A stretch of 63,113 nt of DNA, filler included, from Reclinomonas americana ATCC 50394 (Eukaryota), in NCBI GenBank assembly GCA_048213135.1. It is 7 parts of 5 records of this genome, joined end to end, with 100 filler letters (N's around TTAATTAATTAA, not from the genome) between each part and the next. Parts side by side here need not be neighbours in the genome. Positions count along the whole stretch, not along the records: positions 1 to 12,621 come from PS015654.1; positions 12,722 to 23,866 come from PS015655.1; positions 23,967 to 26,465 come from PS015655.1; positions 26,566 to 43,007 come from PS015656.1; positions 43,108 to 50,692 come from PS015657.1; positions 50,793 to 58,792 come from PS015658.1; positions 58,893 to 63,113 come from PS015658.1. One strand, given 5' to 3'. The position numbers were made by a program, and so were the translations under genes. Of the stretch, positions 1,002-60,099 are shown one piece after another; the stretch's first letter is position 1; each line of letters starts with the position of its first letter. Under the pieces are notes generated by a model. That model ran no database searches. It was not told where the DNA came from and worked only from the letters and a program-made list of their open reading frames with translations.

Positions 1002-2092
1002 GTCATTGTCCACCTCGCGGCACACACCAACACCAAGACCGCCGAGGAAGACCCCGACCGCTGCATGCTGGCCAACGAGGCTGGCACTCGCAACCTCGTG
1101 CAGTGCCTCGACAGTCACACCAAGTTTCGCGCCTCTCAGTCTCTCCCTCGCCTCTTGTTTCTCCCCTCTCCATGTCCATCTCCTTCTCCTTCTTCTTCTT
1201 CTTCTTGTTCTTCTTCATTGCTTCTCCTCCTCCTCCTCCTCCTCCTCCTCCTTTTTCTTCGGACACTCTCTGCCACCTTCCTCTTCTTTCTCCCTCTCGC
1301 TTTCTCCTGTCCACCTCCTTCACCTCCTTTTCCCTCTCTCACCCCACATCAGGTTCATCCTCTTCTCCACCGACTGGGTGTACCGCGGTGAGGCCTCGCG
1401 CGAGGAGCCGTACTTGGAGACGGATGCCACCGAGGCGGAGACTGTGTACGGGCGCTCAAAAGTGGCCGCTGAGCGAGTGGTGCTAGAGGCGGCGGCGGAG
1501 CGTGGCTTCCCGTACGTGATTCTGCGGAGTGCGCTCATCTTTGGTCCACCGGCGGTGTACAGCGGGCAGACAAGTTTCTTTGAGTGGTTCAACGTGGCGC
1601 TGGCCAACGGCAAGACCGTGCAACTGTTCATCGACGAGATCCGCAGTCCGGTGTATGTGCGCGACATTGCGGGCATTGTGATGGCACTGCTGCACGACGA
1701 AGCGCACTGGAACCAGGTGTACAACATGGGATATCCTTGCTTGCCCGTTGTCTTCGTCGTTTTCTCGTCGTTTACGTTGCGCACTTCCTTGACTGCGTGA
1801 GAGAAATCGCACAGGGCGGGATCTGATCTCGCGTTTTGAATTTGGCCGCCGGCTGGCACTCTCGCGTGGCTACAATTTGGATCTGCTGCTGCCATCCAAG
1901 GCCAGCGATGGTACGTTGCCGCGTGCTGTGCTCTTCCCTCTGGTGGTGGCGAATCATTCACACGCACACTGCGCAGTATTCAAGGACGGCAATCGGCCGT
2001 CCAAGCTGGGCATGAATATCGACAAGCTGCTGGCCATCTATCCCAATCTGCGCACCGTGGACGAGGCTCTCGCCGATATGGACGCCAAGTGA
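1002..2092 (+). CDS. RmlD/MAT2B-like extended SDR (dTDP-4-dehydrorhamnose reductase family), 5'-partial, spliced
   Basis: The spliced product contains VIVHLAAHT...AEEDP, FILFSTDWVY, the YxxxK motif YGRSK, ILRSALIFG, DEIRSPVYV and YNMGGRDLISRFEFG, and stops at 2092. Upstream exons are not visible. Confidence 0.85.
1731..1812 (+). other. U12-type (minor spliceosome) AT-AC intron
   Basis: Donor ATATCCTT at 1731, branch TTCCTTGAC at 1785-1793, acceptor AC at 1811-1812. Removal restores YNMG-GRDLISRFEF. Using the AG at 1813-1814 instead gives an in-frame TGA. Confidence 0.9.
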
Positions 2093-2190
2093 CACTCAGA
2101 TGTATACTGGATAGAACGAGAGAGAGTGAGAGAAAAAACAGCCAGTGGAGAGTGTTAAAGGGGAGATAAAATAGTGGAGGTCTACACGGC

Positions 2191-5100
2191 TCATGCCTCG
2201 TCATCGTCGTCGCCGCTGCACTCGGCCGATCCCGCAGCAGCACTGCCGCTTCCTGCACCGGCAGGCAGATCCAGAAACGTCATTTTGGCAGGCGGCACAC
2301 GCAGCTGCTGAATCACCGACGCCTCATCCTCCTCGTTCGTCACTCGGTACACTGCGAGCGCAGCGAGGGTCAGTGAATGGGGGGAAATGGATGAAAGTGG
2401 ATAAAGCGCGTACGCACCCACGGAAAAGCCCTCGGCCACAGTCGGCGCCACAAACTGACGGACGAAGCGCTGCATCGTCTGGACCGACTCCTCGGTGGGC
2501 GGCAGGGTCGGATGGTTCTCTCGCGTCCTTACACGCTCCTCGCACACCGCCTGCGCACACGCGCACACACACATTTCGTCAGCTGGCACAGACTGCAAAG
2601 AGAGGAGTGTGATCAGTTACTCACCACTGGCGTGTCGAGGTGCACTGCAACAACATCGTCGGCCTTGTAATCGCGGGCCAGAGTCACCCACGTCGCTCGC
2701 TGCGCCACATCAAAGTTGACACGATCGACCACAACCGAGCGGTCCTTGGCCAGCGCCTGCTTCATGTTTGCCTGCGCAGAAGAGATGAGCGCAAACATGC
2801 AATAAACAGAGCACGCACACACATGATGCGCCTCACCTCGACTGCCCCACGCGAGCCCATGTCGTCCTGGTTCACACTGCGCGGGAGAGACATAGTCAGT
2901 CACTGCACAACCTCGACCAATCATCTTCACAACCCGCTCACCGCACGAGGTTCGGAATCTTGTTGACCAGCAGACGACTAAAGTACGACTTGCCGGAGCC
3001 AGGCAGACCGCAGACCACAATGACGCGCAGCGGGTGCGCGTGCGGGCGTGTCGGCACCTGCACCTTGACGTTGCGGTCGAGCTACAAGCAACGACAGTGA
3101 GCGACAAAGGGCAAAGGTAGGGCAACTTCACACACACAAACACNNNNNNNNNNNNNNNNNNNNAAACACACAAACACACCTTCCACTTGCCGCGCAGATC
3201 CGCATGCTGCTCCATGAGGTAGGAGAGAATGGGGCGGCGGAACTTGTTCCACTCCTTCGTGCCCATGTCGAGCTCCTCGCGAATAGTGTTCTCGTCCATG
3301 TCGCGCTCGCGCTCAATCACCTTGCGGTAGGCCTCGCGCACCAGACCCTTCTTGAGGTCGTCGAACTGCTCCCAGTGAACCTCCTCCACATCCGGCGGCT
3401 TGATCTTGTACATCGAGCGGTTCAGCAGGAAGCCCTCGGTGTCCAGCAGGTACAGCACGCGGCCCTCCGTCNNNNNNNNNNNNNNNNNNNNNNNNNNNNN
3501 NNNNNNNNNNNNNNNNNNNNNNNNNNNNNNNNNNNNNNNNNNNNNNNNNNNNNNNNNNNNNNNNNNNNNNNNNNNNNNNNNNNNNNNNNNNNNNNNNNNN
3601 NNNNNNNNNNNNNNNNNNNNNNNNNNNNNNTGTGAAGGACAAGGGAAGGGGGATAAGGGAGAGGGGGAGTGCAAGGCGACATATGATGTGAGAGACGGAC
3701 GAAAGAGAAAGAAAAGAGCAACATGCCTCAAACGACAAACGTAGACGGAAGAAAAAGAGACAGTGATAATTGCACACAGAATGGACATCAATCCCCCATG
3801 CCTTCACAAGACATGTTCGCAAGCGACACTTCTCTCTCTATCTCTCTCTCTCTCTCTCTCTCCCCAAAACGCACCGCAAAATGATCGTACTCGTAGCGCA
3901 GCTTTAGACCACGCTCCTCTNNNNNNNNNNNNNNNNNNNNNNNNNNNNNNNNNNNNNNNNNNNNNNNNNNNNNNNNNNNNNNNNNNNNNNNNNNNNNNNN
4001 NNNNNNNNNNNNNNNNNNNNNNNNNNNNNNNNNNNNNNNNNNNNNNNNNNNNNNNNNNNNNNNNNNNNNNNNNNNNNNNNNNNNNNNNNNNNNNNNNNNN
4101 NNNNNNNNNNNNNNNNNNNNNNNNNNNNNNNNNNNNNNNNNNNNNNNNNNNNNNNNNNNNNNNNNNNNNNNNNNNNNNNNNNNNNNNNNNNNNNNNNNNN
4201 NNNNNNNNNNNNNNNNNNNNNNNNNNNNNNNNNNNNNNNNNNNNNNNNNNNNNNNNNNNNNNNNNNNNNNNNNNNNNNNNNNNNNNNNNNNNNNNNNNNN
4301 NNNNNNNNNNNNNNNNNNNNNNNNNNNNNNNNNNNNNNNNNNNNNNNNNNNNNNNNNNNNNNNNNNNNNNNNNNNNNNNNNNNNNNNNNNNNNNNNNNNN
4401 NNNNNNNNNNNNNNNNNNNNNNNNNNNNNNNNNNNNNNNNNNNNNNNNNNNNNNNNNNNNNNNNNNNCGGAACGCCTGGTTCTCCTCAAAATTGTCGCGC
4501 TGCAGTCGCGCCAGCAGCGCATGCAGCTCTCCTGACGGCGGCACCGGGGCCGGGCCACTGCAGAGTGCGGTGAGTTGCAAGAGAAGATAACAACAGACAT
4601 AGTGTAGCCACACGAAACATCTCGTTCGGGTCGGTGGAGGTGATCACGGGCTGGATGCGACCACGATCGTCGCTGATGAACAGCGGCTTCATGGCCAAGT
4701 CAAAATCGTACGACACCAGGTGCGGCTCGCGTCGGCCGCACAACTCAAACGCCACGGCCTGCCATTGTGGCGAGTCGAAGTGCACCGCGCGCAGGTCGGC
4801 CGGCAGGTGCGGCGAATCCGCGTAGAACCACGACTCGTGCTCGGCGCTCACGATGGCCTTGTCGTGCGTTTGGCCGGCTGTCGGAGGCGGGAAATGAGAA
4901 GATGATCAGTGGCCAACGCAAGAGCGAGAAAGAAATGGTGCGACTCAACGATGCTCGGGCGCCGCGCCGAGTGCCGTCAACACCAGGTCGAAAAACGCGC
5001 CAAACTCTCCATTGGTGATGAATGGCGAGCCCTTGCTCTTGGCGCTGATGCGCCAGCGGCCTGCGCCGTCCGGGTACTTGAACATGAGCAGGTTCATGCC

Positions 5101-8693: not shown

Positions 8694-10978
8694 TCACTGC
8701 GTGTGCAACGCATTAAACCTCTTATCGCACTCCTTCCTATCGTTGCCAATCTTCCACAGCTGCGGATACAGGAGGCGGATGTGCTTGACCTTCTCGTCGT
8801 GCGTTGGGAAAAAATTAAAGTGGATGAGGCGCAAGCGCGGCGACTGCAGGTCGCTGGTGTGCCGCATAAAGTCACGCTGATGCCGGAACGCCAAATGGCC
8901 GCTCGGGAACTCCAGCGGATGCAGGGCACACACGCGCAGTGAGCCGTTACGCTCGGACAGCGTATTGGCAACGTGCTCGGTGCGCGCCAGCGCTCGGCGT
9001 GCGAATTCGTCCGAGTCGCCCATCGGCCGCAGCGTCGCCATGCCGCGGTAGTCACCGGCGCCCAGAATGGCTGCGCGGGGGGTGAGTGGGCGAAGCGCAA
9101 AGAGAGAGAGAGAGAAAGGGGAGAGCGACGAAACTCTGCAGCAGAACTTGATCGTTGGAGTCTGCAAACTTGGCGCTGACCTCCAACCAACTGCATGCAG
9201 AGGCAGGTGAGGAAACGCACACACTCGCTCACTTGGCAAAGTACATACGCAACGTGTCAAACATGCGAATCGTGCGCGCATTCGACGCAATGTACGTCAC
9301 TCCACAGCAAAACATCTCCGGCGGGCGCGATATGGGGAACTCAAAGAACTGCACGTCGCGCGTGGTGAGCATGAGAGCCACAAACAAAAGAGACCGATAC
9401 AGCTCTGTGTGTGCACGCAACCTCCTCGCTGTGCGTGTGGAACTCGTCGTCGACGCTATACGACACCTGTATTGAGGAGGAGTGAGCAAATGCGACACCC
9501 AGCGGACACTCGCCACATGCACAACACGCAACATCGCACATCTCCATGTCTGGAAACTCGTCGAACGCACGCATCGGCACCGTGTCGGCATCCACATGGA
9601 ACACCGAGAAACCGCGTCGCAACTGCACAGGGGAGGCAATACGGGGTAAGTTGCAATGGAACACACTATACGAAAAAATGCGAATCTTCCCCGTGAACCC
9701 CCAACCTCAGTGCACAGCTATCAACCAACTATGTGCACAGCACACACACACACACACATACATACACACACGCACACATGCACATGTACAGAGCAAAACA
9801 CACTTGCCAATAAAACCTCTCACACACGAAAACAGAGAGTGTCTGTCCAACTCTTCACTCATGCACTTTCTCTCGCTCTCTCTCGCTCCCCAGTCTCACC
9901 CCTCACTCTGTGAGTGAATGTGTGTGAGTGTGTATGTATGTGTGCAAGTGTGCGACAGTCTGCGTCTCTCTCTTTGTCAGTTTCCCGTTGCACAATACTC
10001 TTCTGCACATCGCTCTTGTGCCCCCGCCCTCTCAGCAGCTCTATCTTCTCCATTCCCCTTCTCTCTATCGCTCACACACACACACACACTCTCTCTCACT
10101 CTCTCACACGCACACAAACTCCTGTGACTGTTTCACTCACATTCCCGGACACAGATTGCTCTGCATCTCGCTCTTCTGCACCTCGCGCGCTCTCTCTCTG
10201 CACCCCCCTCTCTCTCTTCCCACTCCTCGCCGCACCTCGTTCTTCCCTCCACTCACTCTGCCTCTCAAACTCCTCTCACGCTGACTGCTTCCCGGACACT
10301 ATGCCACTCAGCATCTCCTCTCTCCCTTCTCCCTCCCGCACACGCACGCACCATATGATGAATGAGAATATTACGACTCTTCACCGTCGACAAGTACAAC
10401 TTGGTGTTGAAGTTCTTTGGCACCGCATCCACCGTATTCCACTCGCCCTTCTCATCCCCCTCATCATCGCCCTGCGGCAGAAACACCGCCACCCGTCCCG
10501 GCCTCGCCACCAGCCTACTCAACCGCTCATACAGCTCCCGCGTAAACGCAATGACGACCACGCCCGCGAATCCACGTTGCGGCTCGAAACCCAAATAGTG
10601 ACACCACCAGTTCTCCAGCCAGTCGGAGAAGCCGCCCGAGGCCTCGGTCTGCACCAAGGCCGCGCCGGCGGGGAACTGCGCGAGCACGCGATCAAAGCGC
10701 ACTGAGACCTCTTCGGGGAGCACGGCCTCGGGGACCTCGCCGTCGACGAGCGATTGGGTGGGCGGCAGTGGCGTGGTGAACGTCTGCAGCGTGTCCGGCT
10801 GCTGCGCGGGTGGTGATGAGCTGCGGCGAAGGCGTGTCCATAGTGGGGCGCCTTCGACGGTCAGCGATTGGCTGGAGAGGGTGTAGTAGAGCGCGAGGGT
10901 GATGAGTAATGAGAGCGTGGTGAGGGCGAGGAAGAGCGGGCGTGTGAGCAGACGCGTGCCGCCGTTGCCCGCACGCAT
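8694..10978 (-). CDS. Type II membrane nucleotide-diphospho-sugar transferase (GT77/Nucleotid_trans-like)
   Basis: N-terminal anchor PLFLALTTLSLLITLALYY. Spliced LRRGFSVFHVDAD (DxD), CDVSYSVD, CCGVTYIASNARTI, LHPLEFPSG and IHFNF...EK. Confidence 0.75.
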
Positions 10979-11666: not shown

Positions 11667-14600
11667 ATGAGCGCAGGGTCGATGTCGACTCGACGGTGCG
11701 TTCCTCCTTGCCTCTCACTCTCCGTCACACAGGCGGCTATTCGTTCTCATAATGTGTGTCAATTTCCATCGAAAGCAGCACTGTCAGTGTCAGCGAGGAA
11801 GACGACGATGAATTCCTCTTGTCGCCGGTATCTCCTCCGCCTTCTCTCCCGCCTCCGTCTTCCGCAAGGCCGCCGTTGTTGGATCTGCGCAGTGTCGATG
11901 ATGAACATGAGGGCGATCACTGGCTGTCGCGCTGGCAATGGGAACTGGTGACGCTGTTGTTGTTGGTGTTGGGGTACTTTGGCAGGTACTTTTGCACGAT
12001 TCAGTTGCATCAGGTCATTCGTTTGTGGGAGGAGTCGGGTGCGTGCACGTGGCTGTGTGTCTGTGGAGTAAGAGAGTGAGGATTCGCTCACTGTGTCGAT
12101 GGGGGAAAGAGGGCATGTCGGATGCGGACTTTGGAGTGATCCTGGCGGCGGGGTACATTACGGATTGCACGTGTCGTTTCTTATATGGTGCGCTTGGGCG
12201 GGGTGCTGCTTGTGTGTTTGTGTGTGGGAATGTGGGCATGTGGGGTGGCAGTTGGGTGAGATGGGTGGGAAGATGCGCTTTTCTGTCAGCTCAAATCCGT
12301 TATTCCTCTCAGATCGGCGTGCTCTGTCTCGCTCTCTCTCTTTCTCTGATGGAGCTCTGGGCGTTCTCCTACCTTTGCTGGCATTCAGTACGCTGCTACG
12401 TCAAGAGGATTCCTTCCTTGCTCACTCTGCGCTCGTTGAGCGTGGCCTCCTTTTAATGTGGGCTGCTGTCTCCTCGCTCGCTCCTGCATCATTTAACAAT
12501 TCCTTTCATCGCTCGCTTCTGTGCCCGTTGAGCGTGTCATCTTCTTCCCTCGCTCGCACTCAGAGCACTACTGATCGCAGGATACGCTCCTTCCTTTGCT
12601 GCACCTGTACGTGCTGAGGACNNNNNNNNNNNNNNNNNNNNNNNNNNNNNNNNNNNNNNNNNNNNTTAATTAATTAANNNNNNNNNNNNNNNNNNNNNNN
12701 NNNNNNNNNNNNNNNNNNNNNGGGGAAGACCGAAGGGGGAAGACGAAGGGGGAAGACCGAAGGGGGAAGACCGAAGGGGGAAGACGAAGGGGGAAGGGGA
12801 AGGACAGGGGGAAGACGGAAGGGGGGAAGTGAAGGGGGGAAGCAAANNNNNNNNNNNNNNNNNNNNNNNNNNNNNNNNNNNNNNNNNNNNNNNNNNNNNN
12901 NNNNNNNNNNNNNNNNTCCTCCGACTTCCCCCTTCCCTCATCCCCCTTCCGTCCTTCCCCCTTCCGTCTTCCCCCTTCCGTCTTCCCTTTCCCCCTTGAC
13001 CCCTTTTCCGCTCCCCTCCCTTCGCCTCTCCCCACAGGGCCGCACCATGAGCGTCATGTCCATTTCGTACCTCGGCGGCAGCGTGCTCGTGCGCAGCACC
13101 ATCGGGGCCATGATCTCGGCGGGCTCGACGTGGCGCCAAGTGTTTGTCGCGTGTGGCATCATGGCCTTGCTGCTCAACGTGCCTGCGTACTTGTTCCTGC
13201 GCGACTCGCCCGAATCAGTTGCGTGGGTGGCGATGAAGGGGTGGAGAAGCTGCTTTCATTTTGCTGAAGCTTCCGCTTGCAGATCGGATTCCCTCCGGTT
13301 GTTTACAATCGTGCGTGTCTCGTCAATCTGCATTTTAGTCTTCGGCTGCTCACACTCATTTTGGCGTCTGTGCGCCAGGTGACGACTTGCCCCAATCCAA
13401 TCTCACTCCCGCTCAAGAGCAGCGAGCCTACCGGGCGCTGCTGCTGCGCATCGCCAAGACTCGCGTGTTTTGGGTGGTGGCCATTCTGGCGATGCTCATC
13501 TTTAGCATTCGAGAGGTTGGTGACGCGGCGGATGCCTTGATACTCCAACTTGTGATTGATCACGTTCCTCTGCAGTTTTTCCTCTCATACGCTTCCAAGT
13601 TCATCGCTTTCGTGTACTGCGCCTCACGACTAGAAGACGGCGTGCTCGGTATATGTGCTTTCCGCCTTCCTCTTCCTCACTTCACGTGCTCACACGTAGT
13701 GCAGCGCTGCCGGAGGTGATGGGCCAGTGCCTGAACTCGCCCGCCGCCAACTCCTTCGCCGCGTACACCTCCAGCTTCATGCCGCTGGCTGGTATAATAT
13801 CGTCGCTGGGTGCTGGCTGGATCCGAGATCGCACACCGAAGCAGGGTCGCGCCCTGCTCATGCTGGCGTACATGTGCATCCTCTTCCTCGCGCTCAATAT
13901 TATGCTCTGGAGCAGCTCACCAGGTGAGAGTGATTCTTGCGATGGTTGGTGGGTGGAGAAGTGAAATCTTACCTTTTGTCGCAGGACCACCTCCTTCGCT
14001 GACCCTCAGCGCCTCGGCGGTAATCATGATGGGCTTTGGCATCATTGGACCGTACTCGCTCATCGGCGGTGTCTTGGTCCTCGAGATTGGCGGTTCGTCC
14101 TCACCTTGCAGCGAGTTGTGCATTTGGTTCTCGGTGCTCACTTCTCCTTGAACTTTCACAGGCAAACAGGTGCGACTCGATAAAACCCCTGTGTCTGCGC
14201 CATCACCTGTCTCACTCTGTTCTCCTGCAGGCATCGTCGGCAGTCAGCACAGCCATTGAATGTTGCGTGCTTTCACAAGCGTGAGCATTCTTGTCGTTGT
14301 TTCTGCACTCCTTGTTGTCGGTCTTGTACTTCTTTGTATCGTCGCACCCTTGTCTTTGTCCCTCCACTTCGTCTTTCCTCTGTCGCCTCACTCGTTGGCA
14401 TCATCGTCCATTCCTTCATTTTTCTCCCACTCTTTCCCCTTCTCTTCCCCCCACTCCCATTCTCGTCCCCCCATTCTCTTCCCCCACACTTCCCCCTCTC
14501 TCCCCCCTCCCAGCGTTCGGCATGCTCGGCACCTGCGTGATCATCCTGATCAGCTCAACGCTGATCTCGAGCTGGATCGGCACCTTCCGCCTGCTCATCG

Positions 14601-22488: not shown

Positions 22489-23640
22489 TTACACGATCTT
22501 GTTGGTCAGATCCGACAGCGCCTGCACCATGGCTCGCGACAGCTCACCAATTTCGTCAGCGCGACTCACCAGGGGCTCCATCGGCGGCTTCAGGCTCAGG
22601 AAGTTGTTCAGCGCCAGCTCACATCGCTCGGTGCTGAGAGAGAAAAGAGAATGTGAGTTCTCACAGAAGACTTGCAGTGCACATCGCCAATCGACGAACC
22701 GTTCTTCCCGGGCCGGATCTGGTCCAATGCTCGTGCGCGCGGCAAGTGTGTCTCGAATCACAGCCGAGAACCCGGTGAACAGGACGCGGGCGGCCCGCAA
22801 CGCGGCAATCACATGTCTGCAGACAATGAATTAGAATAGAGACATTCTCCCCACTCCTCTGTCTTCGACGTGACACGCAACGACTGGAAACCGGAATTGA
22901 GCAGGGTTCGCAGCATGGGGAGAAGCATGGTGCAATGGTCGAGTTTGAAGTACATCAGGCGCGATTCATCGCTAAACAGCTGATTGAGGACATCGACCTG
23001 CAAGCACGCACCGGAAATGAGCTACCAACGTCGCCGAGAAAACGGCAACACCCACTTGATCACTCACTTGCGACGACGGATCGGCCAAGCGAGTGAGCGC
23101 CTCCACAGCGCCCCTCACATCTCCATTCGCCCACAGAGTTCGCACGACCTTGATGTTGGTTTGACGCATGGCGAGAATGCCGCACATGGTGTTGTGCTCC
23201 CTCAGCAGAGCCTCTATGATTTCCGCGTCGCTGTGTGACAGCGGCGTTGGTCCCTCCTGCTCGCCAGCAACGAGAAGGAAGAATTGAGAGTGAGACATGA
23301 GAGTGAGGACGGCGCTGGCAGAAAATCCCACGCACCACTTGTGGCATGAACTGCTTAATGTCGAGTCCGAGAGGAGCGTCGGTGGGGGCACGGATAAAGG
23401 TGCGCGCCATTTCATCGTCCTGGTCGGGTCCACCAGATGCCACAGCTACGCCACAGAAAAAGGGTGAGGAAGAACAATCAAATGCTGGTCGAGCAGTTGT
23501 ACTTGTTACTCACCAGCAGCGGCCAGCCGTACAGATGCTGGAATCGGCCGTGGTGGCGCTTGGGAAGAGGACGGCGCGGCAGGAGCGGGAGCGGGTGCTG
23601 GTGCTGTGGGGGCGGCAGTTGGCTGGGAAACTGCAGAAGA
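22489..23640 (-). CDS. KATNB1: Katanin p80 subunit C-terminal (con80) region, 5'-partial
   Basis: PLGLDIKQFMP, HNTMCGILAMRQTNIKVVRTLWANGDVRGAV, LDHCTMLLPMLRTLL and AREERFERC, with stop at 22489. Could also be KATNBL1-like. Confidence 0.8.
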
Positions 23641-23774: not shown

Positions 23775-23975
23775 AGAGACGAAGAAGTAAGACAGTAGAG
23801 AAGGTAGGAGTAGAGAGTAGGAAGGGAAGGTAGGAGGAGGACGACGACGAAGAAGTGTGTGAGTAGNNNNNNNNNNNNNNNNNNNNNNNNNNNNNNNNNN
23901 NNNNNNNNNNTTAATTAATTAANNNNNNNNNNNNNNNNNNNNNNNNNNNNNNNNNNNNNNNNNNNNCCCCTCTCT

Positions 23976-26004
<2,029 letters not shown>

Positions 26005-26121
26005 NNNNNNNNNNNNNNNNNNNNTTGAAAACAGAAAAAATACGACCTCCATTGAGAGTTGTCTCATGCAATACTCGAGTGGAGACAGTGCGTTCCGTCA
26101 ATAGTATTGTGTTCTTCTAGC

Positions 26122-46650: not shown

Positions 46651-49600
46651 ATGAGTCAAGCACGAGCTCCGAGTGCTGCAGCGTCTGCACCACTCGTGTG
46701 GACAGGCAACTTGCCGGTGGAGATTATCGGCGTGGTTCGCAGCGCTCACCGTGTGTGTCTCGCAGCATGTGTTCACTGCTGACACTCATCCACTCGTTTG
46801 CGCTGTGTCGCTCCTCTTGCAGATTTCCTCATTCCTTGACATTGACGATGACTTTCCCCGCTTGTGGCGCACCTCGCAAGGCTTTTGCATGCTCATGCAA
46901 CAACACGTGCTGGTGGCACGTTTGCGGTTGTGTGAGCCTTTGCGCACAGGTCAGCAGTGGATGTGTGGACGCATGCGTGGTCGAATCGTCCAGGAAGTGC
47001 GTGCTTTGGCACAATGGGCCGTTTATCTTTGCGACTTTTTCCCGGACGTTGCCACGCTCTCTGTTGTCGTCAGTCAGGCAACATGTACCCGCATTGCGCC
47101 GTCAGTACCCACTCTGGCGTGTGCCCTCCAAGAAGCAGCCAAGAATGCGATTTCCCAATGCTATCAGTCGCGGCTGGACGAGCTGGTGGTGTGCGCCGAC
47201 GTTGCGCTGCTGGGGAGAGACGCGGCGCAGGCGGCACAAATCCTGGACACGGTGCAGCAGACGCGGCGCGTGCTTGTGTCGCCTGGCGTCACAATCCACC
47301 TCGACTGGAACGACGATCCGCGTTCGGCAGCTGCCATCTCGCACCTATTATGCGACACGTGGATGTCGGTGGCGGCAGAGAGTTGCGTTACCTCTGCTCT
47401 GCGACCACGAGACTCTCTTTGGAGAGGCACGCGCACACACGCTCTCTCTCTCTCTCTGCGAAGACGCGCTGTCTGCCTTGTTGTTCACTCTAGTGTTCAC
47501 GAGCACCTGGCACTGTGTGTGACCGTGTACCTTCCGCTGCAGGTGTCGCGAACCAAACCACGCTCGCTGTTGCGACTGCGGCGGCGGCTGGCGCTCCTCC
47601 GCCTCCGCCTGCTGGTGCAGTCGGGCTGCGGATCCTGAAATCGCGTCTGAGGGACGATTTACTTCGACAAGTCGGCACTTCCACAAGTCGCGCTGCCGTT
47701 GTCGCGCATGCACTGCAGCTCGGTGAGCTATGACTCGAGGCGACCCATCATATGCCATTCTCGCACGAGTTTTTGTTGAATGGGATCTGATGTGACAGTG
47801 CGTGCAAATGTGGCGGTTGGCCACAACGCTGGCGCTCTGGCTTGCGCGCTGGACGACCTGTGGATTGCCCGTGTGCCTGCTCGTTGTGATGGCGTGTGGG
47901 GCAGCCGCAGCACTGTGGAGCCTGTGAGCGTTGCATATTCAAGTGCCGACAGTGCGGTAGAGCCTCTCCTCCTTGGCTGCCTCGATGAACATGTTCAGCT
48001 GCGGCTGCACGGTGACGCCGGCTTCCTCCGACTCATACACGTCGTCTCATGTTGCGGCATTGCGTGTTCGTGTGTACCCGCATGTTGGTGCGTACACTGG
48101 CTCTTACCGTGCCGCAATTGCAGGGGTGCGCGAGCTTGGTTCAAAAATTCTCGACTCTCCAGAGGGATTCACTGCGATGCGACGTGCTGTCGAAGCGGTG
48201 TGCACTGCCGACATCGACATGCGATTTTCACATGAGGATCTGCGTTTGCTCTCGCGGTTCGTGTACGACGTGGTGGACATCATTGGACAGGCCCCGCATT
48301 CGCGCGGAATAGCACAGCAACAGACGCTGTTGCTTGTTGCGCGGTCCTTTACATATCGATGTTCGCGAGGCTTTCACGAGCGACCAGTGCGCACCGAACA
48401 AATTGCAGAGCTGTTGCCTGTGCTACTCATGGCCAGCCTGCCGAATACTGTATATCAGCTGGAATACGCCGACCAACGCGATTGGGCGTTTGTGTTGCTG
48501 AGTGCCATGGAGATGGACCTGTTTGACGCCACAAGCAGCTTGTGTACGCGAGCTGAGGATGCGCTGGTGGGCTTTTGCAAGTATTACATGGACGCAGGCG
48601 GCACCAAGGCGCCTCCGGGCTGCCTGGTGGTTGCTCTTCCCAGCTTGTTGGACAAGTGCGTGCACGATGGCCAGCTGGTCATCCCTGCACTGAGAAGTGT
48701 GCATAAGCTGATCTCCAGTTGCGTTCCCCACTTGTTCTGACGTGCATACGCGCCGTCTCACTCTATCAATTATATTGTCTGTGTGCGCGTTGATGCTACT
48801 CAGGCATTTCCGCACTGACGCCAGATCTCATGAGCACTCAAGGCAAACTTGTTTTGCAGCTCGCTGTTGAGCGTGGCTACTCGCTCTCGCGGCCAGATGC
48901 TGCACCAAGGGATGTTGATTTCGCACGCAAGTTTGCGCTGACTGTGGTCGGTGCTCTTGGCCAAGAAGTGTCGTCGCACGCGGCGGGTGTTCTCTGCGCA
49001 ACCGTGCGCTTTCTCATTCGCGAGTGTGCACTCGGCACTCCTGCGCTTCGACGACCCCTGCTCGACATTCTCTACCGTGCCAGTACGCCCGCTGCAGTCG
49101 CTCTGTTGACGACTGATGAGGAGGACGATCAGCAGCGGGCTTGGGTCGACCTCACACTGCGCACCATGGAAACAAGCGGATCACACGCTGAGCTTCATCA
49201 CAGCTGTGCCACGCACTGCTTATCCAACTTTGTGACACGGTTCTACGAGCACCACCCTGACAGTGGCGCTCCTGCGGCAGTCACGAGCGCTCTTCGTGGC
49301 ATGGTGGGCGACTGCTGCAACGCCAGCCGGGAGCCTGTACCGGTAGCCTTGCGACGCCTGCGCACTTTGCTTGCTCGTTGCGTTTTGCTGTGCTCTGAGC
49401 GTGCGCTAATGTTTTTTGTGACCATCGCCTTTCTCTTTTGTTGTCGCTCGCGTCGCAGTATGCCCAGCACTCATTCCAGCAGTCTCATTCCTCTGCGTAT
49501 CTGGCTCGCCCAACATTGTGCAACTGGCTGCGGAGTGCAGCATGTCACTCGAACATCGAGTTTCGGCATCGGCCGTGAGTGACCACAGCGAGGACGGCGA

Positions 49601-51598
49601 TGCTGTCCAGGAATTTGCATGCCAGTTTATCAATCACGTCGGCTCGAACACAGCACTGCACCAATGTCCGTCTGTGATGGAGGTGATGGGCGGCCTGGCA
49701 CAGTTCCTCACCCGTCAGTGTGTTACGCTTTGTGGCACCGATGATCGGCTGCTACAGTTGCGATACCACTTTCGCCTTCCGTTTGTGTTGGACCAGCTGC
49801 GGCGTGTTAGCGTTCCGGCAGTCGTGAGCTCGCTGACCGACGACGATCAACGAGCATGGGTGGAGGTCACCCTGCACTGTGTGCACACAATGGCGAATGG
49901 CGCGGGCATGTGGCCTTTGGCGCCGGCATGTCTCACCAAGTACATTCAATCGCGTGCGTCAGCAGCGCTGTCAATTCCGGCTCCTGTGCAGGAACTGCTT
50001 GTGAAACCAGTGTGGATATGCGGCTTGCTTGACCGCCTCAAGGAGAAGGAGGTGGCTCTCTGGCCATTGGTGACGCAGATCATGCGGACTCGCGATGCTC
50101 GACTGGGTTTCGTGAGCAATCTCCGTTTGGTGATCCTTTCATGTCTTCTCACTCGCTCACTCTGCAGTGCGAGGTGACGTTCGGCAGCGCATCAGCGAGT
50201 TGGTTCGCATGCAATACCAGGAACTGTGTTGCGAATGCGAGAGCCGTTCTGACGCAGCTGCGGCGGCCATGCACATCAGCAGTCATTCCATCTGCCAGCT
50301 TGCCGAGCTCCTTGTGGTTTCCAAGTACTTGTTCTCCGCTGCGCACAATCGCGAGTGGACGCAACTGATGCTGCGCACGGTGCCGCTCAATTCGCCCTCC
50401 AAAGCGAGAGCTGGCGCGGACCAGCGATGCAGTCTTGGGTTCGCCGCGCTGCATGCCGCACTGTCGCACAAGGATTCGATGCCGGCGGCTGATGCGGAGG
50501 CCGCCGACGAGTACCTGTTTTCTCTGGTCGGCGCACTGGTGGAGGCGCTTTCGTACACCGGGCCTGGTATGCGTTGAGGGAGAGGGAGGGGAAGAGGGAG
50601 AGGGAGAGGGAGAGGAGGGAGAGGGAGAGGGAGAGGGAGTGGGAGAGGAGAGGAGGAGGGGAAGGGAGAGGAGAGAGGAGAGGGAGAGGAGANNNNNNNN
50701 NNNNNNNNNNNNNNNNNNNNNNNNNNNNNNNNNNNNTTAATTAATTAANNNNNNNNNNNNNNNNNNNNNNNNNNNNNNNNNNNNNNNNNNNNAAAGACGG
50801 GCGTAGGCGAAAGAGAGCAGAACGTCACCAGCGTAGGTGACCATCTTGTTTTGCGTACTGAGTTGCGTTTTCTTTGTGCAACCAGGCACGGCGCTCATTG
50901 ATCTCGGCCTTGTTATCGACTACGTGGGCACACTGATGCTGGATGTTGTGCGTGCTATGAACGAAGCAATGAGGCTTTCTCGTCGAGGTATGTGTGCGCT
51001 CGCACGCGTATGTGTCACAGTGTTTCACCGTTCAATTGTTTTTTCCACAGTGCGGTCCCGTATGTGGCTTTTGCTGCGATGTATTCTCGATCCGGCAGCC
51101 GGTCGGCGGCGCCAAGTAGACGAGTACCTGAACATGAGAGTGCCCAACTCGCGGCCGTTGTGCGATCACACCGAGCAGATGCATGTCTCGGAGGTGCTTG
51201 GCCGTGCCTGTGCCGATGAGCTGGAGGAAGAGGAGGCGCATCCTGGTGGCCTCGACGTGGAGGTGCGGAGTGCGATTCTGTTTCTTCATGCGCCGTCGCA
51301 TGCCGATCGCGAGGAAGCTGATTTGCAGCTTGCGCTGCAGCAATCGATGCTGTCATTCGACGGGTATGAGGATCAAGATGACTTGGGTCGTGTGGCCTAT
51401 GGATTTGTTGACGATGTGATGATGGAGGAGGAGGAGGAGGAAGAGGAGGAGATGGAGATTGAGTTTGAGTTTAGTGATGATGACGACGGTGGTTCAGAAG
51501 GAGAGAGAGAAGTGGAGGAGGTGGAGGTGGAGGAGGATGAGGAGGAGGAGTTCGTCGCTGATAGGTCACCGGTTGCATCAGCGGAGTCAGTTCGATAG
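46651..51598 (+). CDS. F-box protein with long predicted helical-repeat region, UIM-like motif and acidic tail (paralog 1)
   Basis: The spliced N-terminus NLPVEIIGV|ISSFLDIDDDFPRLWRTSQGF is F-box-like. The C-terminus has EEADLQLALQQSM then poly-E/D. Spans a linker at ~50737. Confidence 0.7.
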
Positions 51599-51925: not shown

Positions 51926-54900
51926 ATGGGCAATCTGTTCGCTCGAGTCGATGACTTTGACGACTATGTCAACTGCTGCGCTCAGTGTACCTGGGCTCGC
52001 CTTCCGACTGACTTACACGGGGAGGTACGCGTTGCTTGTGTCTTCTCTGCGGTTCTTGAGTGCTCACCACCACCTGCATGACCGCTACGACTTCGATTTC
52101 GAACATGCATCGACGCTGTTTGGACGCAGATTTTCTCGTATCTCGACCTGGAGGAGGACTTTCCGCGACTGTGGCGTGTATCTCGATACTTCTACGCCGT
52201 CTTGCTGATGAAGCTGCACACTGCGCGCTTGTCTGTGGAGCGCTTGCGCGGGTGCCGGAACCCGTCGATGGTCAAAAATCTACTCCGTTGCTTCACCGGC
52301 ATCCGAGAGTTGCAGATCCATGTCGGTGCTTCTGCAAATATGCGTACATTGCCGATGGAGATACGCGAGCTGGCTGCTGCGTCCCGCAACGCAGCCGTTT
52401 CACCCCGCCGTCTCAAACTGGTGGTGCAAGTGGATGCGTCATTGCTGGGACCAAGTGCTCCACATGCGTCGCTGCTCTTACGTGCATTGGAGCAGCGTGA
52501 TGGCCCGTCCTTGGTGGACATTCGACTCCAGTGGCCACATGCCCGGGACCGTCAGCGGACGACTGCCCATGGCCACATCGGCTCGCTGTTGACCGAGATT
52601 CTGTCGCATGCGCCGCGATCGTCGGAGAGTTGCGTCCTTCTCTGCATGTCTCTGATCATCAGTAATCGCAACTTCCTTCTCACGAGGATGCCAACACAGT
52701 AAGCGGCGCAGGTGCTTCTCTGGAGCTCTCCGTGTTCGGCCCGGAATCTGGATCGGGATCGGCAAGTACAATTGCTGAAGAAGACGAAGAAAGAAACGCA
52801 GCCATGCATCGTCTGCGGACGCTAGTCGTGCACCAATTACTCCATCACTTTGACTTGCATCCGGAGCGCGAGGCAGTTGTTCTGCACGCATTGCAGAGTG
52901 GTGCGTTATCATTTTCTACACAAGAGAGTACTACACGTTGCTTCTCTTATATTTGTTGGCGACCGCACAGTGTTCGACCGCCGTGGCAGAGTCATCGATG
53001 AGACGCTGATGCGCGTGCTGTGCGACCTCGACTGCGCCAGCACCCGGACCCATCGCCGCGATCGTGAGAGCGATGTCGAACTGCCGTACACGACGACGGC
53101 TGTTGCACCGTCAACTCTCGAACAGCTGCTCAAGCAGGCATGCACTCGTGGCGCCTGTTTTGTCGGGGCGGCGTCCAACCAATCTCTCCAAATACTGATC
53201 CAAGCGCTCAAGTGTTGCGTACGCTGCACAGCGTGTAATTACACTCATCAGTCCCGTTCTTACATGTTGTCAATGCAATCAATCATCAGGGCTCCCCAGC
53301 ATCGCATCGACGATGCTATCGCTTCCAGTGGGTCTGGAACTTGTGCACGGAGCCATCAACGCCGTCTGCAACACCGACACGCATCAGCTGACGATGGCGG
53401 ATCAGCAGCGCGTCGATGAGTTTGTCCGTCGATGGCTGCGCGCCGTCCACCGTGAGAGTTGCTCACTCCGTGAGCTGACCCATGCGGTGTCCACGTTGAC
53501 GATGGCGTGTGCTCGGAGCCTCCGTGCATCTGGTGATCGCCATCTGCCGACGCTGCTGAGCCTGCTTCTCGACGAACTCGGCGGAGCTCCAGCGCAGGCT
53601 CGCAACCTTCCGAGCCCCGAGGCCCAGTCTGCGTGGATCGACGGCATGATGCACATTATCCTGGACACGCACAGCACGACAATGTGGAAGTCAACAGCGA
53701 AATCAGCACTGATCCGTTTCTGCGGAGTTCCCGTCCCACAAGCGGCACTGCAGGCTCACAGCAACTTGATCCGGGCGAGCTGCAACGGACAAGAGCTTGA
53801 GCTCCAAGTTCTCCGACAACTACACTTGCTGGTGTCGTGTTGCGTACAAGCGCTGCGACAATGTGTTTCATAGTCATCGCACTTCTCATCTCGCATGCAG
53901 GCGCTCCGAGCTTGTTGGTGCCCATGTGCATTACAGCACAGGCCCAAGACAGCAGCCTCATTCCGCTCATACTTGCGCGTGGCCTGGCGCGCGAACAGCA
54001 CGCCTTCAGTGACGAGTGTGCCAGTGTTGCACAAGACTTGGCGTGCATCATGATAGATGCCCTAACCGACGCTGGAGGCAGGGTGGCTGTGGAGAACTCA
54101 GACGTCCTGACGCAACTTCTTCGAGGAGTCGTGGAATTCCTTGTCGAGCAGTGCCATGCGCAGCATCACATCCGCCCGCCGTTGCGCGATTGCCTCTTGC
54201 GCGTCAGCGATCCAGCCATTGTCAGCGCGCTGGAGATCGACCGTCAGCTGGCATGGGTCACCATCATGCAGCGGTGCATTGTTGACACGGAAAGTTTTGC
54301 ACCGAGAGCAGCGGAGCGACTCACCGAGTACATTAATCGCAATCCCCAGCCGTCTGGGCCGTTGCTGGATGCGCTCTACGAGTCCTCCTGGATTGGCAGC
54401 CTGTTCCTCGGCGAGCTGGCATGTCTGCAGAGTCTGGAGTGCCAGCGGCGGCGCTTGCACTTGCTGACGGCGCTGGTGAGGGCGTACGAATATCGACTGA
54501 GTTTCGTCAGCCTCTCCCCTGTCACACTGACATTGCAACGCGGTGTCGACGCAACCGTTCGGATGCTGTATCCACTGGCTTCGAATTCCGGCAGCGACGC
54601 CATCTGCACGCACCGTGAGCTCGTCGAGCTGCTGTTGGTGTCACAGTATGTGTTTACGGATACTTCCAAGTGGGCGTCGTTGATGTTGAAGACTGTTGAG
54701 GAGGACTGCTCGAGCTTCCAATGCAGTCTTGCGTTCACCGCTCTCCACGTTGCACTGGCGAGCTACGACCGGGACGACTACGATGAGGACTTCCTTGTTC
54801 GGCTTACGTACGGACTGCAGACTGCCTGTGGTGCGCGTGAATCAGCGCAGCGATGGTTACGGTAGACACGTCGAACTCACCTTCTTGTCTCTGCGGTTTC

Positions 54901-56180: not shown

Positions 56181-57702
56181 ATGAGCAAGCGCGCCCGGCA
56201 GATCGAGCTGGATACCGAGGACCACGACGAGAGTGAGCCGCCACTCAAGCGTTCCAAGGTATCCACTCACCGCTCTATCCACGCGTCTGCATGTGAACTG
56301 ACGTCGAGCTTGGGCGCCAGTCGGACTCGTCAATTCCGGAAGTCGAGAAACTTCTCAAACGCCTCGAACAGTGCTACGCCAATTGCAAACCTCACGTACG
56401 CCAGCCGCTTCTCGATCGCCTTTTGCACGCCAGCGATCCAGCCATTGTCAGCGCGCTGGAGATCGACAGTCAGCTGGCATGGGTCACTATCATGCAGCGA
56501 TGCATGCTTGTTGCGGCAAACATGGCACCGAAAGCAGCGGAGAGACTCACCGAGTACATTAATCGCAATCCCCATCCGTCTGGGCCGTTGCTGGCTGCGC
56601 TCTACGAGTCCTCCTGGATTGACAGCCTGTTTCTCGGCAAGCTCGGAGGTCTCCCAATCAAGTGCCAATGGCTTCGCTTGCAGCTGTTGACAGAGCTGGT
56701 GAAGGCAAACGGATATCTACTGAGTTTCGTCAGCTGGCAGCATCGCACTGATCCGTAGTTGTACTCACATGCCGGTCATTGCTCAGAGAGTGATACAGTG
56801 CAGCGCGGTGTTGACGCAATCATTCAGCTGCTGTATCCGCTGGCCTCCGGTAGCGACGCCATCTGCACGCACCGTGAGCTCGTCGAGCTGCTGTTGGCGT
56901 CACAGTATCTGTTTGCTGATACTTCCAAGTGGGCGTCGTTGATGTTGAAGACTGACAAGAAGAATAGCTCGCGATTGAGCTTCCAGTGCAGTCTGGCGTT
57001 CACCGCTCTCCACGCTGCACTGGCGAGCTGCGGTCGGGACGACTACGATGAGGACTATCTTGTACGGCTTACGTACGGACTGCAAACTGCTTGTGGGATC
57101 GCTTGTGGTGCGTGCACATCAGCGTAGCGGTAGATGTTGAAGTACTCACCTTCGTCGATTTCACAGAGTCATCACATCTGGATCTGCAACTCGTGCTGGA
57201 CTACGTCCACGTACCGCTAAACTCCATGTTGCGCGCCATCTGGGAACCTCATCGAGTCTCGCCGCGAGGTAAGTCATTGAGCATCACTCGCAGCACAGAG
57301 AGATTGCTCACCATCAGACTATTGTTCCGTACAGTTCGATATCGCCTGTGGCCACTGGTGTATCGAATCCTCGCCCCTACCGGCAGGCGACCAGATGTAA
57401 TCAACAGATACCTTCACATGGATGTCAATTTCGATTGCGGCAACCGGAGCGCCGCAGAACTCCTCCTCAATGCTCGTCACCGCGAGCTGGAGCACCAAGA
57501 TCAGCCCATCGCGGAATCGGCCGATCCGGATGTACTTGCCGCCATAGTCTCGTTGCCGCTCGATTTCCCAGTTCCGCAAGAGGAGGAGGAGGCGGATGAT
57601 GCCCTGCAGCGGGTGATTCACCAGTCGTTCGAGACGCATATGCTATCCACTGCTCGCGTAAGAGGACGAGAAAGAGGAGCGAGTTATCAAGTGCGCCATT
57701 AG
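56181..57702 (+). CDS. Truncated duplicate of the paralog 2 C-terminal half with a new NLS-like N-terminus (paralog 3)
   Basis: Starts MSKRAR...PPLKRSK. Region ~56395-57760 is highly similar to ~54170-55605, including the 3' flank (tgaatgaccgccagttacactgtaaacaaataactgg). Confidence 0.65.
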
Positions 57703-57797: not shown

Positions 57798-58792
57798 TTA
57801 TGCCGATGGTGGCGACGTGGTAGTCGTCGGAGGTGGTGTCGGCACAGAGGCTGCCTCTTGAGCTGGTGGACCGTCGTAAGTTTGCAGTCCACCACGGCGC
57901 TTGCTTTGTGGTTCAATCAGCCATCTGCCGCGGTGTACAACGGATGTGAGCAACTGAGAGGGAGAAGGAGAGGGAAGGAGAGGGGAGAGGGGAGAGGGGA
58001 GAGGGGAGAGGAGAGAGAAGAGAGAGAAAGAGACGGCGAGGGAAGAGGGAGAGGGAGAGGGAGAGCGGGAGGGAAGGCAAAGAGGGAAGGGAAAGAAGGA
58101 GACAGGGGAGGGAAAAAGGGGGAGAGGCAAAGGAGAGAAGAAGATATGAGCATGGCATTGGATATGAAACGGAAGGAGGGCGCACGCGCGAGAGATATGA
58201 GGAAGTACGACAGATGCAGCATGTTAACGCAAGGCAAGCGACAAAATCAGCGACGACGATCCATCAGAATGCTGTACCCATCTACGATGAAGCCGATCAA
58301 CTGCCCGCCCTTCTGCGCAACTTGAGCGTCTCCTCCGACACCACGAGGCAGATACCGGTGCCGACCGACAATCGGAACATTTTGATTGACAGGCCGCTAA
58401 ATAGTGCTCGATATCCGTCCTCTTTGATAGTGTTTCTGAATGCCTGTGCACAAGTTGCATGTCACTATCACCAACATCGTCACACTAACTGCTTTTTTTC
58501 TTGAGACACACAATGGAACGCACCTTGCTGAAGCTGCTGTACTGCTCCTTACCCGACTGCATGCGACTCTTGATGACATCGAATGGACTGCCCAGAATCG
58601 CCGCGGGTATGCCGGCCGCCACACCGCTCACCAGCTTGTAGAATCCCTTCAGATTCTGCAGAAATCGAAGACACAACTCAGTGCACAATGTCGTGCGGGG
58701 CCAGCCGTGCGGAGCACGTAACATCACCGGTGCGCGACCACCTGCTCTTCAGATACTCGTATGTGGCAAACACCGTGGCGCCGTAGACAGTT
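57798..58792 (-). CDS. Mitochondrial carrier family (SLC25) protein, 3' part
   Basis: FATYEYLK, SGVAAGIPAAILGSPFDVIKSRMQ (Px[DE]xxK signature) and IKEDGYRALFSGL. Last exon KWLIEPQ...SPPSA*. Confidence 0.88.
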
Positions 58793-58929
58793 NNNNNNNN
58801 NNNNNNNNNNNNNNNNNNNNNNNNNNNNNNNNNNNNTTAATTAATTAANNNNNNNNNNNNNNNNNNNNNNNNNNNNNNNNNNNNNNNNNNNNGAGAGAGA
58901 GAGAGAGAGAGAAGCAACAAACGTAGTGT

Positions 58930-60099
58930 TCAGAAGTCGGGCACGGTGACGGAGAGACTCATAGCCCCTGTTGAGGTACGTCTGGGTGGAGAGGAACAAC
59001 GGCTGCAGCATCGCATGCGAGGCGAAGGCAGAGGAGAAGAGGAAGCAGCAGAAGCAAAAGAAAGAGAGTAAGAAGGAAGATGAAGAAGAACGAAGGGTGC
59101 AGAATCGTTTCCTATGAGAGGAGGCGGAGGAAAAGGAGTAGAGGAAGGTAGTAGAAGCAGAAGAAGAAAGGACGACCAACAAAACAAGAGGGAATGGAAG
59201 AGGAAGAGGAGCAAGAGAAGGAAGGTGAATAAGAACGAAGGCAGCAGAATAGTTTTCCTCTGAAAAGGGGGGGGGGCGTGGAGGAAGAGGAGGGGAGGAA
59301 GAAAAAGAAGATGGAGAAGAAAGAGAAAAAGAAAAGAAGGGAACTGCAAGGAGAAGAAGCAGAACAACAACAAAAGGGAGGAGAAGGAGAAAAACAAAGG
59401 CACGTGTGCCTGCAGAGTTGCCTGCCATGGTCTTCAACATGCCGAATGCTCAAGAGACGCAACNNNNNNNNNNNNNNNNNNNNNNNNNNNNNNNNNNNNN
59501 NNNNNNNNNNNNNNNNNNNNNNNNNNNNNNNNNNNNNNNNNNNNNNNNNNNNNNNNNNNNNNNNNNNNNNNNNNNNNNNNNNNNNNNNNNNNNNNNNNNN
59601 NNNNNNNNNNNNNNNNNNNNNNNNNNNNNNNNNNNNNNNNNNNNNNNNNNNNNNNNNNNNNNNNNNNNNNNNNNTCGGAGAGCACCGGCAGTCGGCTTGA
59701 GAGCGCACATGAATCCGCTAGTGACCACCAACATTACTGCAATAATAAAGTGGACCTCTCGCAGGTTGTTGGCCACCTAAACAACAAAGAAACAAGAGTA
59801 AGACACAAGTGAGACTGCATGTGCGGAAGAATTATGAAACGATTTTGCATGAGCGCGCGAACCTCCTCGCTCAACGGATGCGCGAATCCGTGATGGTTGT
59901 TGAAGGCGGGGTCAACAAGGCGATGCACGCCTGTTCATTAGAGTGTGTGTGTGAGAGAGAGAAAGAGTGGGAAACCACTAGTTTTGAGTGCGTGCACAAA
60001 CTGTTTGTGCGTTTGTTTGCTCATGTGTGCGTGTGCGTGCGTACCTGCGACGAGGTAGAACAGCGAGAGGAACTTGATGACGAAACCGCCAAGGCTCAT
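58930..60099 (-). CDS. Small multi-TM protein of unknown family, copy A (3' end lost in gaps)
   Basis: MSLGGFVIKFLSLFYLVA|G...HPLSEE|VANNLREVHFIIAVMLVVTSGFMCALKPT, paralogous to copy B. The 3' coordinate is approximate. Confidence 0.55.

Follow-up and report, generated by a model that had tools for sequence, protein, structure and literature searches.

An abundant second class of predicted 5' splice sites, displaced by one base, in nuclear DNA of Reclinomonas americana

The stretch of DNA considered here (the window) comprises 63,113 nucleotides (nt) of Reclinomonas americana ATCC 50394 (GenBank assembly GCA_048213135.1) and is made up of seven parts separated by six linkers (12622-12721, 23867-23966, 26466-26565, 43008-43107, 50693-50792 and 58793-58892), each consisting of 44 N, TTAATTAATTAA and another 44 N, across which genes cannot be followed; further N gaps occur besides the linkers, and the assembly is fragmented. 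The window is nuclear DNA, very intron-dense and about 52% G+C, in which genes for an RmlD/epimerase-like protein, a WD40 protein, an ABCG transporter, katanin p80 and lysyl-tRNA synthetase (LysRS) and the start of a UDP-glucose dehydrogenase gene can be recognised, along with a very large gene that combines about 16 cadherin-like repeat exons with an FN3 domain and an REJ domain. The subject of this report is the 5' splice sites (donors) of these genes, which fall into a normal class, with GTGAGT as its commonest member, and a second, shifted class typified by GTT[GT]CGT. A reading made from the sequence alone had listed 40 donor positions with the motif GTT[GTA][CA]G, optionally followed by T, and this motif is indeed present at all 40, one of which (59463) adjoins a run of N. 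It can be stated with high confidence that shifted-class donors are real and abundant in the window.

The motif is over-represented before any gene model is applied. GTTDMGT occurs in 61 copies, as against 35.5 +/- 5.2 in shuffled sequence, and none of 100 shuffles reaches 61. GTTGCGT is the commonest donor-like heptamer of all, with 39 copies where order-2 and order-4 Markov models predict 11.7 and 13.9, and it exceeds both GGTGAGT (31 copies) and GGTGCGT (23 copies). Alteration of its first G or its seventh T drops the copy number to background, in that GTTGCG followed by C, A or G is found 12, 14 and 9 times and TTGCGT preceded by A, C or T is found 7, 8 and 4 times. On the analysis's own map of gene orientation, GTT[GT]CGT lies on the coding strand 43 times and on the opposite strand 7 times (p=2e-7), the antisense figure being the level expected by chance. 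GTTGAGT, with 7 copies against roughly 8-9 expected, is not enriched, and all 7 are on the coding strand. GGTGAGT has no such strand bias (17 sense, 13 antisense), probably on account of the reverse complement of the branch motif, CTCAC or CTGAC.

Four mutually independent lines of evidence (gene finding, a frame test, conserved proteins and paralogues) indicate that these sites are used as donors. The first comes from a dynamic-programming gene finder that was given codon usage, GT and AG and, in a second run, a branch-plus-acceptor score, with nothing else specified about donors. This donor-blind finder placed GTT[GTA][CA]G at 13 of 105 donors where 2.0 were expected (p=1e-7), and GTT[GT]CGT at 10 of 105 where 0.7 were expected, the expectation being calculated from how often such sites occur in the full set of 7530 GT dinucleotides. 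An unsupervised two-class expectation-maximisation (EM) mixture fitted to the predicted donors over four feedback rounds resolved them into nnG/GTGnGT and nnn/GTTGCGTG (a slash here marks the splice junction), and several junctions were misplaced by the gene finder until the second donor class was allowed. A separate frame test used no gene model: the nearest branch-motif acceptor was taken, the best upstream and downstream frames were chosen separately, and the question was whether they fit with the intron length, sites being entered where both flanks scored at least 3. Frames were consistent at 12 of 15 GTT[GT]CGT sites (p=2.9e-4) and at 29 of 37 normal motifs, compared with 205 of 589 other GT sites, which is one third; of the three GTT[GT]CGT misses, those at 13218 and 31915 fit with the next acceptor. 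The alternative of splicing at +6/+7, where the heptamer has its sole further GT, was rejected, the phase being off by two. Open-frame lengths tabulated site by site proved too noisy for a ranking, as it is common for two or three frames to be open together.

The claim that reading frames are restored at the 40 listed donors stands in large part. A frame-keeping GT..AG intron was found at 32 of them, nearly all with a branch-motif-bearing acceptor, while three (20922, 36394 and 59463) are cut by a gap that follows the donor and five are weak or unsupported. The trained gene finder recovered 27 of the 32, and 20165, 22040, 31093, 42710 and 53839 are frame-keeping sites beyond these; one flank is thinly supported at 28239, 38271, 47382 and 52629. 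At least two members of the class, 9134 (minus strand) and 58722 (minus strand), were absent from the list. Of the 74 high-confidence introns 23 belong to the class, as do 31 of all 126 predicted introns and 6 of 16 donors in a hand-built ABCG stretch, so that the original estimate of roughly a quarter of introns was a fair one. Judged from the DNA, these are best regarded as genuine GT-AG spliceosomal introns that would make up some 25-30% of the introns of the organism.

The ABCG gene provides the densest example. Sixteen exons hand-spliced at the proposed sites form one open frame with, in order, what we take from knowledge of the family to be the Walker A, signature, Walker B and HQP motifs, and six of the sixteen donors in this stretch (18490, 18799, 20165, 20338, 20720 and 20922, all plus strand) belong to the shifted class. 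The junctions LLA/LMGPSGSGKT (18490), VLQE/DIMF (18799) and KPVYF/GPI (20165), proposed in the sequence-only reading, are each continuous in frame in the hand-built coding sequence, and the exon next downstream of the 20165 intron can be aligned, starting at its very first residue, with residues 268-298 of human ABCG2. The shifted-class introns of this gene are predicted at 18211..18314 (trained finder and frame test), 18490..18574, immediately before Walker A (hand-built coding sequence and frame test), 18799..19203, which is 405 nt long and CT-rich (donor-blind run, trained finder, hand-built coding sequence and frame test), 20165..20229 (hand-built coding sequence and the ABCG2 alignment of the next exon), 20338..20401 (donor-blind run, trained finder, hand-built coding sequence and frame test), 20720..20779, with GTTTCGT (trained finder, hand-built coding sequence and frame test), and, in the membrane domain, 22040..22106, where a frame-keeping solution gives VSFIN/YTYS. 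A further donor at 20922..20928 follows an exon that matches ABC2_membrane, its acceptor being lost in the N run 20955-21424. The roughly 1.2 kb that code for the nucleotide-binding domain are split among 16 exons, and a 5-nt exon, ATCTG at 19848-19852 (plus strand), is needed for the in-frame ..RTV-IC-SIHQPSSE... An exon-by-exon Pfam scan of eight ABCG exons returned two weak matches only and was of no use for junction mapping, and the 58-residue ABCG exon A, used as a query against the Protein Data Bank (PDB), gave nothing usable.

Paralogous sequences within the window offer an independent view of where exons end. The region 30096-36392 (plus strand) holds some 16 cadherin-like repeats in tandem, each of about 92 residues and encoded by its own exon, all in phase 1; the FN3 and REJ domains come after them. 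Several adjacent pairs are near-identical, introns included, with 100% identity along 60 nt between the introns at 33931 and 35312. Fourteen of the repeat exons end in a Glu codon plus 1 nt. In ten of these the exon ends GAAG/, GAGG/ or GAAA/ and the intron begins GT[AG].., and in the other four (31093, 31915, 33582 and 36394) the boundary is GAGA/GTTGCG in the same phase. In the case of 31093 the trained finder opted for GTGCGT close by, at 31069, which truncates the repeat, whereas the listed site restores it. The corresponding plus-strand introns are predicted at 31093..31170 (GTTGCGA), where the exon then ends ..LRE plus 1 nt like the paralogous repeats, at 31915..31978 (trained finder and repeat comparison) and at 33582..33654 (GTTGCGC; donor-blind run, trained finder, repeat comparison and frame test). 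At the donor 36394..36400 the exon terminates in ..ELYE and one further nt, in keeping with its paralogues, and an acceptor was not found, a 20-N gap lying at 36475-36494. A further member, 30026..30093 (trained finder), precedes the first repeat exon.

A second set of paralogues consists of three diverged copies of one gene, in which CTG[AG]/GTTTCGT is kept at 54501, 56724 and 50107 (all plus strand; copies A, B and C) while the rest of the intron has diverged. The intron of copy C, 50107..50167, was recovered by the trained finder, and its donor is the one conserved among the three. That of copy B, 56724..56786, is supported by the donor-blind run, the trained finder, the frame test and the paralogues, and read-through meets a stop. 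In copy A the donor persists at 54501..54507, the acceptor region has been lost and read-through is in frame; the copy is about 40 nt shorter than its sisters, and 54501-54545 looks like an intron remnant turned into 11 coding codons.

It might be argued that the whole class is an artefact, either of gene modelling or of a sequencing error that adds a T to GTGCGT donors. The fragmented assembly, the weak coding bias and the frequent presence of several open frames at one place would all favour spurious models. Such models would not be expected to yield the strand bias of 43 to 7, the frame test result of 12 in 15 against one third in controls, the retention of the motif in three paralogues or the intact long exons, and an insertion error would need to strike about 70% of donors without a G at -1 and almost none with one. 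An artefact is therefore very improbable.

The composition of the two donor classes suggests how they are related. Among 51 normal donors A occupies -2 in 23, G occupies -1 in 42 and +3 in 33, +4 is A in 21, C in 18, T in 11 and G in only 1, and +5 G (43), +6 T (31) and +7 G (24) follow. Among 23 shifted-class donors -1 is A in 12 and G in 2, +4 is G in 16 and T in 7, +5 is C in 21 and A in 2, and +6 G (23), +7 T (21) and +8 G (13) follow; the positions that vary freely in this class are -1, +7, +8 and the choice of C or A at +5. When the shifted class is slid by one base the two profiles agree, with A at 12/23 against 23/51 (class -1, normal -2; p=0.62), G at 23/23 against 43/51 (+6 and +5), T at 21/23 against 31/51 (+7 and +6) and G at 13/23 against 24/51 (+8 and +7). 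Left unslid, the exon sides are opposite, G at -1 being present in 2/23 and 42/51 (p=2e-9). The earlier remark that only four listed sites follow an exonic G is borne out by 4 of the 39 listed sites at which it can be read. The single rule then proposed for both classes, G[GT]TNMGT, proves too loose, since C fills +5 in 21 of 23 class members whereas the equivalent normal +4 is a mixture of A, C and T (p=8.5e-6), and GTTGAGT is not enriched. The class would instead appear to be a second, tightly defined 5' splice site of the form (A)/GTT[GT]CGT(G). In effect it resembles AG/GTGCGTG with the third letter changed to T and the cut made before the first available GT: replacement of the first intron G of a normal (A)G/GT[GT]CGT(G) donor by T would leave a first available GT, and hence a cut, one base upstream.

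Shifted-class introns share with normal introns a length mode of 60-75 nt, a CAG acceptor and the branch motif, which throughout the window is CTCAC or CTGAC, 8-45 nt before a [GA]CAG acceptor. Within -45..-6, 13 of 39 introns contain CTCAC (3.1 expected) and 5 contain CTGAC (1.5 expected); in the high-confidence set the motif is present largely by construction, because the acceptor score rewards it. All 23 high-confidence members start with GT and end with AG, both of which the finder required, and no U12-type donor ([AG]TATCCTT) was found among the listed donors. The uniformity of the donor and the narrow length range of 60-75 nt in most introns would also suit mobile introns of a single family (introner-like elements), each copy bringing the same donor with it. 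An all-against-all BLASTN comparison of 74 introns, however, returned microsatellite matches and two tandem-duplicate pairs of the normal class only, and the shifted-class introns do not differ from normal ones in length, acceptor or branch motif. As shifted-class introns share no sequence, they are not a mobile family, and an introner origin is scarcely credible.

How such donors might be recognised can be approached through pairing with U1 small nuclear RNA (snRNA), for which the 5' end AUAC(psi)(psi)ACCUG was used as in PMC9311317, this being the standard sequence and not the organism's own. The mean number of pairs that shifted-class donors form with it is 3.96 when the register is canonical and 6.43 when it is moved to +1, the latter being the better one at 22 of 23 sites; for normal donors the two means are 7.33 and 4.76, respectively. 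The favoured reading, to which we give a probability of about one half, is that the class is read by an ordinary U1 in a shifted register. U1 would pair one base out of register, so that +1G faces C9, the -1 base faces U10 and +3 to +7 face A7 to A3, and the later spliceosome (U5, U6 and Prp8) would then fix the cut at the GU.

A bulged register would serve as well by the count of pairs. In this arrangement +1G and +2U keep their usual partners, a single U at +2/+3 is looped out, and the bases from +4 to +7 take the partners that +3 to +6 have in a normal donor; bulges of this kind have been validated for human sites, with 68 predicted and 54 retained after curation among 201,541 in Table 3 of Tan et al. 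(2016, PMC4856993). The shift is preferred over the bulge because a bulge keeps the -1 base facing C9, where G should be retained, yet G at -1 has been lost (2/23 against 42/51) and A, which fits U10 when the register is shifted, is found in 12/23. The bulge is for this reason distinctly unlikely. It is also conceivable that the register does not change in any defined way and that these are protein-assisted, 'right-handed' donors that place their information on the intron side and depend on a variant of LUC7, U1-C or Prp8. The exon side is indeed without consensus and the intron side very strong, and in animals and plants LUC7 subfamilies separate left- from right-handed donors (Kenny et al. 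2025, PMC11842720). Such an explanation leaves both the exact one-base displacement and the slid-by-one exon match unaccounted for, the window holds no LUC7, U1-C or Prp8 gene, and we accord it little credence.

Several points weigh against an ordinary U1 in a shifted register, or against the strength of the counts on which it draws. The predicted duplex is weak, with a mean of -1.7 kcal/mol in the shifted register compared with -6.8 kcal/mol for normal donors. The C at +5, present in 21 of 23 sites, faces U5 of the standard U1 and cannot pair, and GTTGAGT, which pairs better, is not enriched. Watson-Crick pairs alone do not separate the bulged +2/+3 register from the shift (5.04 and 4.96). 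Class positions +3 to +6 are partly fixed by the pattern that defines the class, the high-confidence set was picked with the analysis's own acceptor score, and the 39% of training donors assigned to the class by the EM procedure is an upper bound because the loop reinforces itself. Finally, five of the listed sites are weak or unsupported: 14262..14268 (plus strand), where the upstream frames are negative in score; 29101..29107 (plus strand), weak on the frame check; 48051..48057 (plus strand), whose sole strong acceptor fits no phase; 53214..53220 (plus strand), not supported by the frame check with the acceptors found; and 58315..58321 (minus strand), likewise unsupported by the frame check. 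The proposal in the sequence-only reading of a routine shifted register is partly supported, by the slid-by-one profile match and by the better pairing of 22 of 23 sites at +1; the need for C at +5 and the weak duplex do not suit a plain shift with standard U1.

The C at +5 must either be chosen by something other than U1 pairing (U6, U1-C or LUC7), or U1 differs at the facing position, and this unexplained need points to some peculiarity of U1, or of the proteins bound to it, in this organism. If U1, or one of several variants of it, had G in place of U at position 5, and perhaps other changes at positions 5-8, ..GCGU would be the cognate core; in one version a dedicated variant would pair with GUUGCGU in the normal register. 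The near-obligatory C at +5, set against the mixed A, C and T at normal +4, would follow if the shifted class already has one mismatch and hence tolerates no other, and the near absence of G at normal +4 (1/51) and the weak predicted pairing of the class with standard U1 point in the same direction. With a G substituted at position 5, the shifted class would have 5.78 Watson-Crick pairs in place of 4.96, and the figure for normal donors, 5.92, would hardly differ from before, which is arithmetic and not evidence. Against a variant of this kind stand the position of the U1 5' end among the most conserved RNA sequences in eukaryotes and the status of GTGAGT, which fits standard U1, as the commonest normal donor. 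We regard a changed U1 as unlikely. It is a doubtful proposition, too, that 5' splice-site recognition itself has been re-tuned, such that a U1 or second U1 with G facing the C of ..GCGU would treat both GUGCGU and the one-base-offset GUUGCGU as cognate and the cut would routinely fall one base off the junction that U1 marks; if that were true, the organism would possess a natural two-register or two-U1 system for at least a quarter of its introns. An Rfam scan of the window for snRNA genes found none at gathering scores, and matches with E up to 1 were low-complexity, miRNA-like noise only. The shifted register with ordinary U1 is retained as the favoured reading.

The remaining members of the class are as follows. 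In the RmlD/epimerase-like gene, an intron at 1124..1352 (plus strand, GTTTCGC) was recovered by the trained finder and the frame test, and its downstream exon corresponds to Pfam Epimerase/RmlD; in the gene for katanin p80 (con80), 22817..22881 (minus strand) has the same two lines of support and flanking open reading frames that match Pfam Katanin_con80. The donor-blind run, the trained finder and the frame test all support 4558..4618 (minus strand, GTTTCGT), 4878..4949 (minus strand, GTTGAGT, among the few with A at +5) and 43489..43555 (plus strand), which precedes a 361-codon exon. Both the donor-blind run and the trained finder support, on the minus strand, 9071..9134 (GTTTCGT) and 58656..58722 (GTTACGT), the two members absent from the earlier list, as well as 9349..9421 (GTTGCGT, preceded by an exonic G) and 9467..9532 (GTTGCGT). 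The plus-strand introns 28623..28697 (GTTTCGT), 38434..38502 and 38919..38981 rest on the trained finder and the frame test, 40533..40600 (GTTGAGT) on the trained finder, and 28239..28298 (GTTTCGT), 38271..38339 and 52629..52699 have moderate support from the trained finder. At 42710..42778 (plus strand), where an exonic G precedes the donor, a frame-keeping solution was found. An 86-nt intron at 48718..48803 (plus strand) has flanks that are both open for more than 250 codons, its donor having been picked in both finder runs, and 53839..53900 (plus strand) lies between frames open for 213 codons upstream and 320 downstream in matching phase. The acceptor is uncertain in two cases on the plus strand: at 13218..13422 (GTTGCGT, both finder runs) the nearest acceptor (161 nt) breaks the frame and another, at 205 nt, keeps it, and at 47382..47798, where the coding signal is weak, the intron would be 417 nt, or 781 nt in the trained finder. 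The site at 59457..59463 (minus strand) is the donor motif only, directly after an N run.

Other features of the window deserve brief mention. The longer introns (1124-1352, 18799-19203 and 21425-21560, all plus strand) are full of CT-rich microsatellites, short stretches of which are common to unrelated genes. The last part of LysRS, equivalent to residues 518-584 of the Chlamydomonas protein, lies at 26188-26459 (minus strand), opposite in strand to the rest of the gene and following a 20-N gap at 26005-26024; this is probably a misoriented scaffold piece. A quick LysRS tree, in which 34 of 120 matches were used, places the window protein beside that of the jakobid Seculamonas (SH-aLRT 98, 66% identity), in disagreement with the best single-exon identities, which are to green algae (top 79% over one exon); no weight is put on this placement. 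Amorphochlora (27% G+C), Bigelowiella (45% G+C) and Diplonema (1.6 introns per gene) are a poor match to the window, and a 219-residue orphan exon compared with the ESM Atlas gave no hint of lineage. The UDP-glucose dehydrogenase gene contains an in-frame intron at 27068-27154 (plus strand) directly after GAGYVG, and the predicted protein P0124 of a close relative (86% identity, BLASTP) reads through its equivalent intron. The exon at 27155-27565 (plus strand) is 59-64% identical to verrucomicrobial (Opitutaceae) enzymes among its nearest named matches and 52-62% identical to named eukaryotic ones, the former being at least as close. Beyond the gap at 27568 the remainder of this gene is lacking. 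The first 13 residues encoded by the gene recur identically at 45852-45890 (minus strand), beside a gap, as either a second copy or an assembly duplicate. A search of JGI metagenomes with the UDP-glucose dehydrogenase exon gave 12 loci, the best at 57% identity, too distant for comparison of introns.

If a shifted register is the routine mode for at least a quarter of introns, the position at which U1 pairs and the position of the cut would be uncoupled as a matter of course, and thousands of natural test cases would be available for the choice of GU by U5, U6 and Prp8. Annotation would be affected as well, in that gene finders trained on a single donor matrix would get a large proportion of this lineage's genes wrong. 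In animals, shifted and bulged U1 registers are exceptions: they have been proven with minigenes, and the sites known range in number from a few dozen to a few thousand. A full-text literature search that combined the motif with the word intron returned only primers and microRNAs among the matches listed, a weak sign that the class is not in print.

Comparison with known systems is instructive. A shifted register with the cut at GU is established for rare human sites according to Tan et al. (2016, PMC4856993, citing Roca and Krainer 2009), and the donors described here share with those sites a start of GU followed by U, a U1 core one base downstream, more pairs at +1 and the cut at GU. They differ in frequency, in that all experimentally validated noncanonical registers together account for 3119 of 201,541 human donors (1.5%), whereas the class comprises 23/74 to 31/126 of the predicted introns here. 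They differ also in the core, which is GCGU or UCGU with a C that is unpaired to standard U1, rather than AAGU or GAGU as at human shifted sites. Human donors with a +2/+3 bulge (Table 3 of the same paper) likewise begin GUU, have a surplus U before the core and allow an equal number of possible pairs, but they number 54-68 sites (0.03%), and here the G at -1 is depleted, not kept. The donor classes associated with LUC7 (Kenny et al. 2025, PMC11842720) offer a parallel in the coexistence of two classes with exon-side and intron-side information, respectively; those classes share one register, whereas in the window the motif on the intron side is offset by a single base. What would be new in R. 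americana, a plausible and partly supported conclusion, is the unusually high frequency of a known shifted layout together with its unexplained sequence requirement.

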